DNA of 21,745 bases, taken from a virus. Taxonomy: Duplodnaviria > Heunggongvirae > Uroviricota > Caudoviricetes. The stretch lies in the IMG/VR virus record IMGVR_UViG_3300029102_000023. One strand, written 5' to 3'. Position numbers and translations under genes: made by a program. Every line of letters starts with the position of its first letter. Positions within the stretch are counted from its first letter, which is position 1. Positions 2,917 to 14,541 of the stretch are shown piece by piece. The notes beneath the pieces are model-generated. The model saw only the letters and a list, made by a program, of their open reading frames with translations, was not told where the DNA came from and searched no databases.

Positions 2917-3049
2917 TTTTTGGGACTCCTGGCTGATTAAGTATGTCGATAAGGCGTTTCCATCCGTCACGTAATTTACGGGTGATTCGTTCAAGTAAAG
3001 ATTCGGAAGGGCAGCCAGCAACAGGCCACCCTGCAATGGCATATTGCAT
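2885..3049 (-). CDS. cIII: CIII protease inhibitor (FtsH/HflB inhibitor), 54 aa
   Basis: Hand translation of minus strand from ATG at 3049: [54 protein letters not shown], stop TAA at 2885-2887; below the ORF-track length threshold. Confidence 0.85.
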   Translation of the reverse strand: MQYAIAGWPVAGCPSESLLERITRKLRDGWKRLIDILNQPGVPKNGSNNYGYPD

Positions 3050-3121
3050 GGTGTGCTCCTTATTTATACATAACGAAAAACGCCTCGAGTGAAGCGTAAT
3101 TGGTATGCGGTAACGCCGCGC

Positions 3122-5361: not shown

Positions 5362-5388
5362 CAAAGAAAACCCGGCGCTGAGGCCGGG
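5362..5388 (-). terminator. Rho-independent terminator downstream of the cI-geneA-geneB operon
   Basis: Inverted repeat CCCGGC(5371-5376)/GCCGGG(5383-5388) with 6-nt loop; A-rich run 5364-5370 on plus strand gives T-run TTTTCTT after the hairpin on the minus strand; 6 nt beyond the gene B stop. Confidence 0.6.
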
Positions 5389-5393
5389 TTGTA

Positions 5394-6146
5394 TTATGCT
5401 GCAAGTCTCTTAACCCAAGTCTCTCTTTTGGAGAATGGTAGAACTTGGCTTGATTCATGGAAGAGTAAGGAGAGTTGTTGCATTTGATCACCAATTGCTT
5501 CGCTGTCTATAACAACAAATCTGTTGTTATACTCCTCACTTGAAGCTTTAAGATCAATTAGTTTCCCAAGCAATGAGTAAGCACTATTCCAGCTTCCTCC
5601 GTGTTTCACGCTTGATGTAAAAACGTATTTAGGTATGTCGGTTTTTATTGTTACAGGGACGGTAATTTGATGTCCACTCAAGCCATATACGTTTTCACGA
5701 AGAGAAAGTGCGTCTCTAAGCTCTGTGTGATATAGATAATCAATAACCATACTTTCAAACTTTTCAGCTTGAACTGGCTGATACCAGTCTAACGACAAAG
5801 TTGATGCGAGTATACCAGCTCTAATTATGTTCGATGTAATCGCACCGACATCCTTTTCTGTTGCCCAAGCAATGATTTCTCCTCGAGCATTGAGTTCTGC
5901 GCCTTCTTTAAGCAGTAATTGTCGTATCTCATCAAGTCGTTTTTTGGTAAGCGAGATCCCTCTTGCCTCCATATTCATTAAGGCATCGCATCTGTCACTA
6001 ACTAAATACCTACCATTGACTTCACGGATAAAGGCACCGACATGCTCTCCATCATCACAGTAAGTGAATGGACTGATAATTCTCAAGGTCTTGCCTATTG
6101 GATGGCATTCGAAACCTAGTTGTGAGATCACTGTTGAGCACATCAT
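5394..6146 (-). CDS. Unknown protein B, 250 aa (second gene of the two-gene cassette in the rexAB-equivalent position)
   Basis: Long intact ORF; ATG at 6146 overlaps the gene A stop (ATGA), indicating translational coupling; no obvious transmembrane segments; family not recognised. Confidence 0.7.
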   Translation of the reverse strand: MMCSTVISQLGFECHPIGKTLRIISPFTYCDDGEHVGAFIREVNGRYLVSDRCDALMNMEARGISLTKKRLDEIRQLLLKEGAELNARGEIIAWATEKDVGAITSNIIRAGILASTLSLDWYQPVQAEKFESMVIDYLYHTELRDALSLRENVYGLSGHQITVPVTIKTDIPKYVFTSSVKHGGSWNSAYSLLGKLIDLKASSEEYNNRFVVIDSEAIGDQMQQLSLLFHESSQVLPFSKRETWVKRLAA

Positions 6147-11842: not shown

Positions 11843-12205
11843 GTGAATACCTACAGCATCACATTACCCTGGCCTCCGAGCAATAATCGCTATTACCGCC
11901 ATAATCGCGGGCGCACGCACGTCAGCGCAGAGGGGCAGGCATACCGCGATAACGTCGCCCGAATCATTAAAAACGCAATGCTGGATATCGGCCTGGCTAT
12001 GCCTGTGAAAATCCGCATTGAGTGCCACATGCCGGATCGCCGTCGCCGTGACCTGGATAATCTGCAAAAAGCCGCTTTTGACGCACTCACTAAAGCAGGT
12101 TTCTGGCTGGATGATGCTCAGGTCGTTGATTACCGCGTTGTGAAGATGCCTGTTACCAAAGGTGGGAGGCTGGAACTGACCATCACCGAAATGGGGAATG
12201 AATGA
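11843..12205 (+). CDS. rusA: Holliday junction resolvase RusA, 120 aa
   Basis: [100 protein letters not shown]... matches E. coli prophage RusA; start codon is GTG. Confidence 0.95.
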
Positions 12206-12342: not shown

Positions 12343-12427
12343 AGTCAGAGATAACAATCAACTAATACTGTTTTGTTGATTTTTGCTTGTAATTGGCGTT
12401 CTGGTCTGATTTTTGTGGAGTAAGTTG

Positions 12428-12811
12428 ATGCGTGATATTCAGATGGTTCTTGAGCGTTGGGGTGCGTGGGCGGCTAATAATCATGAAGATGTGACCTGGT
12501 CGTCCATTGCCGCCGGTTTTAAGGGATTAATTCCTTCAAAAGTAAAATCTCGCCCGCAATGTTGTGACGATGACGCGATGATCATTTGCGGGTGCATGGC
12601 CCGTCTGAAAAAGAACAACAGCGATTTACACGATTTATTAGTAGATTATTATGTATGTGGTATGACATTCATGTCACTGGCAAGTAAGCATTGCTGCTCG
12701 GATGGTTATATCGGGAAAAGGTTACAGAAGGCTGAGGGCATAATTGAAGGGATGTTAATGGCATTAGATATCCGGTTAGATATGGATATCGTTGCTAATA
12801 ATTCTAATTGA
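12428..12811 (+). CDS. quuD: Late-gene antiterminator Q (DLP12 QuuD / phage 82-21 type), 127 aa
   Basis: [62 protein letters not shown]... with Cys-rich zinc-binding region; GGAG Shine-Dalgarno before ATG at 12428; the track start at 12413 is a TTG extension. Confidence 0.85.
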
Positions 12812-12834
12812 TATGCAATTGTTTACTAAAAGTT

Positions 12835-12861
12835 ATTAAAAATGGGGCGTGGAAACGCCCC
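12835..12861 (-). terminator. Rho-independent terminator candidate downstream of the porin gene
   Basis: Stem GGGGCG(12844-12849)/CGCCCC(12856-12861), 6-nt loop; on the minus strand the hairpin is followed by ATTTTTAAT. Confidence 0.5.
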
Positions 12862-12950
12862 CAAAATAAAGGGTAATATATAACAGAAGGTTTATATAGT
12901 AAGAAGCAAGGTAGTGCTTCTAAAGGAAGTGGCTTGAGGGCTCCACTTAT

Positions 12951-12988
12951 ATGTTGCGGAGGCAAAGCCTCCCGCAACATATCTTTTT
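12951..12988 (+). terminator. Plus-strand hairpin with T-run (tR'-like candidate) shortly downstream of Q
   Basis: Imperfect 13-bp stem ATGTTGCGGAGGC/GCCTCCCGCAACAT (12951-12980) followed by ATCTTTTTCG. Confidence 0.45.
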
Positions 12989-12999
12989 CGTAAGTCAGA

Positions 13000-14082
13000 T
13001 TAGAACTGATAAACCAGACCTACAGCGACGATGTCGTCGGTATCAATACCAGCTGTTTTGGTAAACTTACTATCGTCAATTAAGTTGATTTTGTAATCAA
13101 CAAAAGTGGACATGTTTTTATTAAAGTAGTAAGTAGCACCGACATCGACATACTTGACTAAGTCTCGGTCACCATGAACACCAAGGTCTTTACCTTTTGA
13201 CTGAAGGTAAGCAACAGATGGACGCAGACCGAAGTCAAACTGATATTGTGCTACTGCTTCAAAGTTTTGTGCTTTGTTTGCAATATGGTTATTACCAAAA
13301 ACGGTCATATTCTGAGTTTCAGAATATGTGGTAGCCAGATAGATATTGTTCGCATCATATTTCAGGCCTGCAGCCCATACTTCCGCATTTTTGCCGGAGG
13401 CATTGAATTTGCTCTTACCATAGGCGACCTGACCGTCAGTGCGATCTGATTTAGCATAGGTTGCACCCACGCCGAATCCTTCATACTCATAAGTAGTGGA
13501 GAAACCGAAACCATCACCATTGGCTTCAGTTACGTCAGTGCGGTCATTTTTACCCTGATACTGAGCAGCAAAGTTCAGGCCATCGACCAGACCAAAGAAG
13601 TCGTTGTTACGATAAGTTGCAACACCAGTAGTGCGACCAGTCATGAACACATCTGTTTGGGTCCAGGTATCACCACCGAATTCTGGCAGAACGTCAGTCC
13701 ACGCACCGATGTCGTATGCTACACCGTAGTTACGGCCGTAATCGATTGAGCCGTAATCACCAAATTTCAGGCCTGCAAATGCAAGACGGGTTTTGTCTTT
13801 GGAAGAACCTTGAGATTCAGCACGGTTGCCTTTGAATTCATATTCCCACTGACCGAAACCAGTCAGTTGATCGTTGATTTGGGTTTCACCTTTGAAGCCA
13901 AGACGGGCATAAGTAGTATCACCATCATCTGCATCATTAGAGGAGAAGTAGTGCTTGGCATTAACTTTCCCGTATAGATCCAGCTTGTTACTGTCTTTAT
14001 TATAAATTTCAGCTGCCTGAGCAGACATCGCCATCAGTACTGATGCAGCTACAGCAGAAATTGCCACTGTTAATTTTTTCAT
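13000..14082 (-). CDS. nmpC: Outer-membrane general porin (OmpC/OmpF/NmpC family), prophage-encoded, 360 aa precursor
   Basis: Signal peptide [23 protein letters not shown] then [23 protein letters not shown]... and C-terminal ...VAVGLVYQF (terminal Phe, beta-barrel signature); antisense between Q and the lysis genes as in DLP12. Track ORF start at 14142 is an upstream in-frame extension. Confidence 0.93.
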
Positions 14083-14450
14083 TGTACGCCCTTTTTTTGA
14101 ACTTTTATTAAAAAATGATGTCACTGCGCGATAAATATTCATCTAATCAATGTGATTATTTCAAGATGTAAGTTTTAGTTTCTCATTTAATTTGTGAAGT
14201 AGATCTCTATTTTTATCTGAACCTTTTCTATCTAATCCTATTCATGGCTCTTGTCTGAACAAAAATAAATCTATTAGCTAATTTATATTAATGGCACTTA
14301 TTTATAAGTGCTCTATAATTCTTTAGCTTAATTTAAACAAACTAAAAATAACATCGGAAATTATTAACTGGTTATTTGTTGAAGTTTTCTTATGCATTTG
14401 TGGTGGTGTTTTGAACACTCGGTGGCATTCTCACAAATATCATTTAGTAG

Positions 14451-14478
14451 TTTACGTACGTAAAAAATTGGTTATGCT
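14451..14478 (+). promoter_or_regulatory. Candidate promoter with perfect 14-bp palindrome TTTACGTACGTAAA (possible late promoter pR' or qut-associated site)
   Basis: TTTACG (14451-14456), 16-bp spacer, TATGCT (14473-14478); the palindrome at 14451-14464 overlaps the -35 hexamer; lies ~30 bp upstream of a strong plus-strand terminator and ~190 bp upstream of the holin gene. Confidence 0.3.
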
Positions 14479-14508
14479 GTTAAGAGTGGTTACTTCGTCA
14501 CACAGCTT

Positions 14509-14541
14509 AAACCCGCCGTCGAGCGGGTTTTTCCATTTTTT
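14509..14541 (+). terminator. Rho-independent terminator upstream of the lysis cassette (tR'-like candidate)
   Basis: Stem AAACCCGC(14509-14516)/GCGGGTTT(14523-14530), loop CGTCGA, followed by TTCCATTTTTT. Confidence 0.65.

Follow-up and report, generated by a model that had tools for sequence, protein, structure and literature searches.

An allele of the porin-linked RNA gene ipeX in a lambdoid prophage, and its predicted complementarity to the ompC leader

Small RNAs (sRNAs) of type II, such as CpxQ and SroC, derive from the 3' untranslated region (3' UTR) of a messenger and are released from it by processing. The RNA IpeX was described in 2006 by Castillo-Keller et al., who reportedly observed a dependence on Hfq for ompF only. 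According to reviews, the IpeX RNAs of DLP12 and PA-2 are made from the phage porin promoter, are processed from the porin transcript and lower both OmpC and OmpF. The RNA is 167 nt long and is made within the porin transcript (PMC12197685). Here, we analyzed a window of 21,745 nucleotides (IMG/VR virus record IMGVR_UViG_3300029102_000023, Caudoviricetes), whose genomic setting is a lambdoid prophage, and more particularly the gap 12812-13002, which is located between the Q gene and the stop codon (13000-13002) of an antisense porin gene. In a preliminary description of this DNA, an IpeX-like 3'-UTR-derived sRNA had been proposed on the minus strand of the gap, and a tR'-type terminator of a Q-regulated late transcript on its plus strand. 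With a probability of about 0.85, we conclude that the locus is ipeX and that the plus-strand hairpin is not tR'.

Identity and structure of the minus-strand RNA

The elements on which this conclusion relies are the following.

12428-12811, plus strand: gene of a QuuD-type Q antiterminator of 127 codons (Pfam PF06530, E = 6.7e-54; annotated as quuD in Escherichia coli (E. coli) genomes)
13000-14082, minus strand: antisense gene of an Lc/NmpC-type general porin (Pfam PF00267, E = 1.9e-151), on whose transcript IpeX is carried
12838-13004, minus strand: IpeX RNA, an allele of DLP12/PA-2 ipeX of about 167 nt in the porin 3' UTR, assigned by homology, with its 5' limit taken from the published length
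12949-12988, plus strand: strong hairpin (12949-12982) and T-run (12984-12988), a candidate intrinsic terminator, and, read on the minus strand, the first (5') stem-loop of IpeX
12927-12948, minus strand: IpeX stem-loop 2, 6 bp with a large loop (-5.4 kcal/mol, z = -1.2; weak alone)
12903-12920, minus strand: IpeX stem-loop 3, 6-7 bp (-5.9 kcal/mol, z = -3.4), whose loop holds changes in most alleles
12864-12892, minus strand: mostly single-stranded IpeX block, flanked by the terminator and a weak hairpin of AU pairs only, with predicted pairing to the ompC and ompF leaders
12838-12861, minus strand: intrinsic terminator at which the porin/IpeX transcript ends, with stem 12861..12844 and U-run 12842..12838

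When the gap was compared with the quuD-nmpC gap of DLP12 in E. coli K-12, as the preliminary description had suggested, an identity of 93.8% was obtained over 191 nt (96% over a wider span of 251 nt). Furthermore, the sequence found directly after lc in PA-2 (GenBank J02580) is the K-12 sequence, identical over the stretch aligned. Besides this homology to K-12 ipeX, the features by which IpeX can be recognized in a sequence were all found, i.e., a same-strand position after an Lc/NmpC-type porin gene, a Rho-independent terminator and a length of about 167 nt. The position directly after the stop codon of an nmpC/lc-type porin gene, the strand, the terminator, the stem-loops and the candidate pairing block are those of the DLP12 and PA-2 RNAs. 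The ipeX locus is thus already known and the window carries a distinct allele of it, next to a porin gene that is intact, whereas in K-12 nmpC is split by IS5. This allele differs from K-12 ipeX by about 9 substitutions and 3 single-base indels. All the differences from the K-12/PA-2 sequence are found in a loop or a linker, shift a bulge or lie outside the RNA, and the candidate pairing block is identical. By analogy with its DLP12/PA-2 homologues, the window allele would be expected to lower OmpC and OmpF.

When the 3' end of the porin gene was scanned for promoters, no promoter-like site emerged, in keeping with an RNA that stems from the porin transcript. Like the type II 3'-UTR sRNAs, IpeX has no predicted promoter of its own and shares the terminator of its parent mRNA.

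Transcript 3' ends were taken from a curated three-condition Term-seq table for K-12 (Adams et al. 2021). The minus-strand ends 574367 and 574366, which stand in two separate parts of this table, correspond to positions 12838 and 12837 of the window, that is, to the last U of the terminator U-run and to the next base. These ends confirm the minus-strand terminator and, together with the DLP12 homology and the identity downstream of PA-2 lc, they bear out the proposal of a 3'-UTR-derived sRNA. Another strong minus-strand end, at 574476, corresponds to window position 12946, 3 nt past the large hairpin. RNA processing or stalling may take place here, by which the porin message would be split from a core RNA of about 109 nt, and the large hairpin, on the minus strand, is likely to be the 3' end of the porin message. 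An end after the 5' hairpin, suggestive of a cleavage releasing a downstream core, is a further likeness to type II 3'-UTR sRNAs. In K-12, nmpC is broken by IS5 at 58 nt upstream of its stop codon; since these RNAs are made in spite of this insertion, another promoter must feed them in that strain.

The folding of the whole gap and of the plus-strand hairpin was compared with that of 200 shuffled sequences. For the gap 12812-13002, the energy was -56.6 kcal/mol on the minus strand (z = -5.8) and -57.8 kcal/mol on the plus strand (z = -4.2), and for neither strand did any of the 200 shuffles fold as low. The two hairpins with T-runs initially noticed, one on each strand, were confirmed, and the distance of about 165 nt from the porin stop codon to the minus-strand terminator was found to be exact (13002 to 12838, 165 nt). 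In the terminator consensus scan, the minus-strand stem consists of 7 pairs, 6 of them G-C, closed by a loop of 4 and followed by ATTTTTAATA (AUUUUU after the stem). Folded alone, this terminator reaches -13.8 kcal/mol (z = -3.0). The plus-strand hairpin 12949-12982 contains 15 bp and one bulged base, because of which it was missed by a simple terminator scan, and is followed by C-TTTTT-CG. Its energy is -21.9 kcal/mol (z = -6.7) and none of the 200 shuffles folded as well.

Eleven E. coli alleles of the locus, 88-100% identical, were compared, and their differences are mostly found in loops or correspond to bulge shifts. The stem of the minus-strand terminator is invariant and its loop alone varies. 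The 15-bp stem of the large hairpin is kept in all alleles with a shifted bulge, and the T-run that follows it on the plus strand counts 5, 4 or 3 T depending on the allele. The stem of stem-loop 2 is two pairs longer in K-12 and in most of the other alleles. As these alleles vary too little, no covariation is claimed.

Predicted pairing with the leaders of ompC and ompF

MicC and MicF, antisense sRNAs that prevent ompC and ompF from being translated, are among the closest known counterparts of this RNA: each presents a short, largely unpaired stretch complementary to a porin leader and its Shine-Dalgarno region, and so does IpeX. On the plus strand, the segment 12864-12892 reads AAATAAAGG-GTAAT-ATATAACAGAAGGTT; in the ompC leader, positions -31 to -7 are AAAUAAAGG-C-AUAUAACAGAGGGUU. 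The predicted IpeX-ompC duplex contains 15 bp (one G-U), a 5-nt loop and 9 bp, and spans the Shine-Dalgarno sequence. Its predicted energy is -26.7 kcal/mol, versus -26.5 kcal/mol for MicC on an overlapping ompC segment, and the 5' end of MicC, GUUAUAUGCCUUUAUUG, resembles GUUAUAUAUUACCCUUUAUUUU in IpeX.

Duplex prediction with the whole length of IpeX and 210-nt targets gave meaninglessly long duplexes. It was replaced by a shuffle test restricted to the block, by a background of real sequences and by the free energy difference (ddG) upon cofolding. In the shuffle test, the energy of the IpeX-ompC duplex was reached by 5 of 1000 shuffles of the sRNA and by 12 of 1000 shuffles of the target, shuffled AU-rich sequences giving duplexes of -18 +/- 3 kcal/mol. 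The background consisted of 27,994 sequence windows of enterobacterial and prophage DNA (424 kb for both strands together). Apart from the antisense strand of the locus itself, the ompC leader was the best site for the block in this whole set. The next-best site, 5386-5460 on the minus strand of the window under study (-26.0 kcal/mol), contains AAAAGGGTAAT and is probably a coincidence. Finally, cofolding of full-length IpeX with ompC gave a ddG of -18.3 kcal/mol (z = -3.6) with all IpeX stem-loops kept. When the block alone was shuffled, the mean was -8.4 +/- 2.7 kcal/mol and one of 150 shuffles reached -18.3 kcal/mol. The ompA control was not significant in this cofolding test. For ompF, pairing is predicted from -15 to +9 with an energy of -18.6 kcal/mol, and about 0.4% of the background windows are as good.

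The block 12864-12892 is invariant in all 11 alleles and is the longest invariant stretch of IpeX. On the target side, 5365 of the 5371 matching E. coli records share the ompC leader with at least 99% identity. The longest exact matches between IpeX and ompC are 10 and 9 nt long; by reasoning, neither would be picked up by a search based on words of 11 nt.

IpeX thus presents an accessible stretch with a predicted complementarity of 24 bp to the ompC translation-initiation region, as expected for a regulator of the MicC/MicF class, and, like these two sRNAs, it is linked to another porin gene, whose expression accompanies the repression. In contrast, IpeX shows no sequence homology to MicC or MicF beyond the pairing block. 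An Rfam search of the gap with E values up to 10 returned no MicC or MicF family, and the only matches, all below threshold, were due to chance (sau-19 and a frameshift site). IpeX also differs from them in being located in a 3' UTR instead of a divergently transcribed gene, in carrying its pairing block internally and not at the 5' end, and in that its pairing, predicted here, is denied in published reviews. On the basis of these models, we give about even odds to a repression by pairing of IpeX with the ompC leader. The fuller proposal, in which IpeX would be a phage-borne mimic of MicC/MicF whose block binds the ompC leader from -31 to -7 and, more weakly, the start region of ompF, remains tentative, its chances falling slightly short of even.

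The late-control module and the porin insert

In lambda-type pR'-qut-tR' systems, as in the window, a hairpin with a T-run is present downstream of the Q gene. The plus-strand elements located beyond the porin gene, together with the neighboring genes, are the following.

14451-14541, plus strand: late-gene control module (pR'/qut/tR') upstream of the holin gene, assigned by homology to the VT2-Sakai annotation, with its promoter/qut part at 14451-14500
14451-14456, plus strand: -35 element TTTACG, with a 16-nt spacer to the -10 element
14473-14478, plus strand: -10 element TATGCT, followed by the conserved GTTAAGAGTGGT
14509-14530, plus strand: tR' hairpin with T-run, within the module
from 14671: phage-21-type holin gene, then lysozyme gene
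11843-12205: rusA

The stretch 14448-14532 is homologous to the one found right after Q in Stx phages, which is labeled in the VT2-Sakai record as putative late promoter, Q-utilisation site and terminator. The identity of the module with Stx phages and SfII is about 78%. Thirty loci encoding QuuD relatives were retrieved, 11 of which carry no porin gene (Shigella, Trabulsiella, Pantoea, Citrobacter, Xenorhabdus, Providencia and one E. coli strain). In all 11, no more than about 20-75 bp separate the Q stop codon from the start of the module, and none of them contains the gap sequence with its plus-strand hairpin. TTTACG, the 16-nt spacer, TAT.CT and GTTAAGAGTGGT are conserved across genera. 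The terminator stems that follow GTTAAGAGTGGT differ in sequence from genus to genus and a hairpin with a T-run is always formed.

Since the module directly follows Q in the relatives devoid of porin, the porin gene and ipeX form an insert between Q and pR'. This insert of about 1.65 kb (12788-14447) comprises the porin gene, ipeX and both facing terminators. The last few codons of Q differ, since homology to the porin-less phages breaks off about 25 nt short of the Q stop codon. Other cargo was observed at the same spot, namely a lipocalin gene in Lambda_ev087 and unrelated open reading frames (ORFs) in Citrobacter braakii.

We conclude that tR' is the hairpin 14509-14530 and not 12949-12988. 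The latter displays a hairpin and a T-run, but neither of the two other marks of a tR': no promoter or Q-utilisation element precedes it, in contrast with lambda-type systems, and it does not travel with Q. A promoter scan from the Q stop codon to the plus-strand hairpin (12812-12948) found no promoter-like site, and the true module is located 1.6 kb further on. The tR' proposed in the preliminary description is therefore not supported. In DLP12, the lysis operon was reported to be under Q control. The plus-strand hairpin, a candidate terminator, most likely stops read-through of the Q operon (delayed-early) into the antisense strand of the porin gene.

The porin encoded in the window is 91% identical to PA-2 Lc. 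A stretch of 590 nt that includes Q, the gap and the porin stop codon (12413-13002) is 100% identical in phages ev017, ev207, 2G7b and PhiR11_1, and 401 nt (12700-13100) are 100% identical in many E. coli chromosomes, including those of Nissle 1917 and ATCC 11775. Sequence homologous to 12700-13100 is present in 2503 of 5426 complete E. coli genomes, and the allele of the window is found unchanged in 680 complete E. coli genome records (at least 99% identity) and in 18 phage records. A blastn search of the gap against 50,697 phage records gave 36 matches, all in E. coli lambdoid phages and with at least 93% identity. In the QuuD-based scan of genome contigs, IpeX was seen in E. coli only. A scan of viral contigs with the porin protein returned 80 loci, each 100% identical, and hence no diverse homologues. 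No ipeX annotation was present under the match in the matching genome and phage records inspected.

Some side observations were made during these comparisons. The record of phage 434B (OL657227) contains, as a recombinant substitution, the Q-ipeX-nmpC::IS5-lysis block of DLP12; the joined 'hypothetical protein' that it annotates across ipeX is spurious. The contig JARKOR010000135.1 (2.1 kb, binned as 'Candidatus Nanosynbacter') encodes a QuuD relative with 85% identity and is most likely an enterobacterial prophage fragment in the wrong bin. Elsewhere in the window, the Rfam model of the lambda cIII thermoregulator element is matched over its full length by the minus strand of 3004-3062 (88.5 bits, E = 1e-20).

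Competing explanations, mechanism and significance

The main competitor of the pairing model is that IpeX represses OmpC and OmpF without pairing, for example by protein titration or through its structured 5' part, the complementarity resulting from AU-richness or from descent from a porin leader. The reviews speak for it, as they report no complementarity and an effect on ompC that is independent of both pairing and Hfq. The same holds for the energies already reached by shuffled AU-rich duplexes, for the chance site at -26.0 kcal/mol in the window and for the lack of significance of the ompF pairing in cofolding. On the other hand, among the 27,994 background windows the best non-self site of the block is precisely the leader of a known target, the predicted duplex is as stable as that of MicC on the same leader segment and Shine-Dalgarno sequence, and no other stretch of the RNA is invariant over such a length. 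Exact matches as short as 10 and 9 nt could, by the reasoning given above, have escaped an 11-nt word search. A pairing-independent IpeX appears rather unlikely to us. Still less probable is a gap made of two convergent terminators and a structured 3' UTR stabilizing the porin message, with no trans-acting role here. Such terminators are common between convergent genes, and the alleles reported as functional are those of K-12/PA-2, from which the window allele differs. These differences nevertheless spare the pairing block and are confined to loops, linkers, bulge shifts and positions outside the RNA, and the roughly 110 nt conserved between the two hairpins exceed what termination needs.

Two other explanations deserve very little credit. 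If the plus-strand hairpin 12949-12988 were tR', it would be overridden by Q and would end a short RNA equivalent to the lambda 6S RNA. A strong hairpin with a T-run about 140-175 nt after the Q stop codon does recall the layout of lambda, but the absence of a promoter-like site before it and the VT2-Sakai-homologous late promoter, Q-utilisation site and terminator at 14451-14541, placed directly after Q in the 11 relatives that have neither porin nor gap sequence, argue strongly against this assignment. In addition, the T-run of the hairpin is not conserved among alleles, and a late transcript starting from this region would run for 1.1 kb antisense through the porin gene. Even more improbable is a small protein encoded by the gap, either from a 58-codon ORF (12804-12980, minus strand) or from a 37-codon ORF (12951-13064, plus strand). 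Both were listed mechanically, and hypothetical ORFs are annotated here in the PA-2 and 434B records. However, the start codon of the 58-codon ORF is located inside the 15-bp hairpin, and its frame shifts because of single-base indels between alleles (e.g., in the T-run before the terminator). The coding reading of the small ORFs was rejected on account of these frame-shifting indels.

Several observations weigh against the interpretation given here, some against the pairing and some against the identification of the locus and its two terminators. Reviews citing the original study state that IpeX has no complementarity to ompC and does not act by pairing with ompC or ompF. The predicted ompF pairing was not significant in two of the three tests (shuffle and cofold), and part of the block is engaged in the weak AU hairpin, so that some of its bases have a low probability of being unpaired. 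No Rfam family was found for IpeX (whole window at the gathering score, gap at E up to 10), and homologues of the gap outside E. coli lambdoid phages were not found among the 50,697 phage records searched by blastn. The conservation seen among close alleles may reflect recent shared ancestry. The Term-seq ends come from K-12, whose nmpC is interrupted by IS5 and whose prophage is not that of the window. The T-run of the candidate plus-strand terminator shrinks to 4 or 3 T in some alleles, and no plus-strand 3' end is present at this T-run in the K-12 table. Of the 3' ends anticipated at both T-runs, only those of the minus strand are thus recorded. There is no plus-strand end at tR' in this table either, and nothing can be read from the lack of such ends, since the DLP12 plus strand may be hardly transcribed in K-12.

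With ipeX as the identity of the locus, the following scheme can be proposed. The antisense porin gene and its structured tail of 165 nt would form a single cassette inserted between Q and pR'. Transcription from the porin promoter would pass the stop codon, the strong hairpin and the two small stem-loops, and would end at the terminator 12861-12838. The product, IpeX, would be either the 3' UTR of the message or a processing product of this UTR. Cleavage just past the 5' hairpin would leave the porin message capped by this hairpin and set free a core sRNA of about 109 nt. Translation initiation would then be blocked by pairing of the block 12864-12892, with the ompC leader over its Shine-Dalgarno sequence and, less strongly, with the start region of ompF. 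On the other strand, read-through from the Q operon would be halted at the plus-strand hairpin and its TTTTT before it enters the antisense strand of the porin gene. As IpeX of DLP12/PA-2 is reported to lower OmpC and OmpF, expression of the phage porin would displace the host porins.

Regarding the origin of the locus, the plus strand of 12863-12916 aligns with the leader and first codons of ompN (z = 4.3) and with the ompC leader (z = 5.9). From these alignments, ipeX may be an inverted, decayed copy of the 5' end of a porin gene. Separately, positions -34 to -3 in the leader of the porin gene of this prophage have a look-alike in the plus strand of 12817-12850 (ATTTTTTAATAAAAGT..AAAAAAAGGGCGT; z = 4.6), which overlaps half of the IpeX terminator. 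Because the body of IpeX lies between the two facing terminators, a Q transcript that stops at about 12990 would be complementary to it throughout. If so, the Q transcript ending at the plus-strand terminator would carry a look-alike of the ompC leader, antisense to IpeX, and could counteract IpeX, and perhaps MicC, in lytic growth.

The locus itself is ordinary, IpeX being known and homologous sequence being present in about half of the complete E. coli genomes (2503/5426). The value for annotation is that ipeX is unannotated in the records inspected and that the late module of a widespread Q type can be placed 1.6 kb downstream, behind a porin cassette. What is added here is a predicted 24-bp match to the ribosome-binding region of ompC, whereas reviews quote no complementarity. 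If this match is functional, IpeX would be a plain antisense regulator, and a clear case of a phage that copies the target site of a host sRNA so that its own porin takes the place of that of the host.

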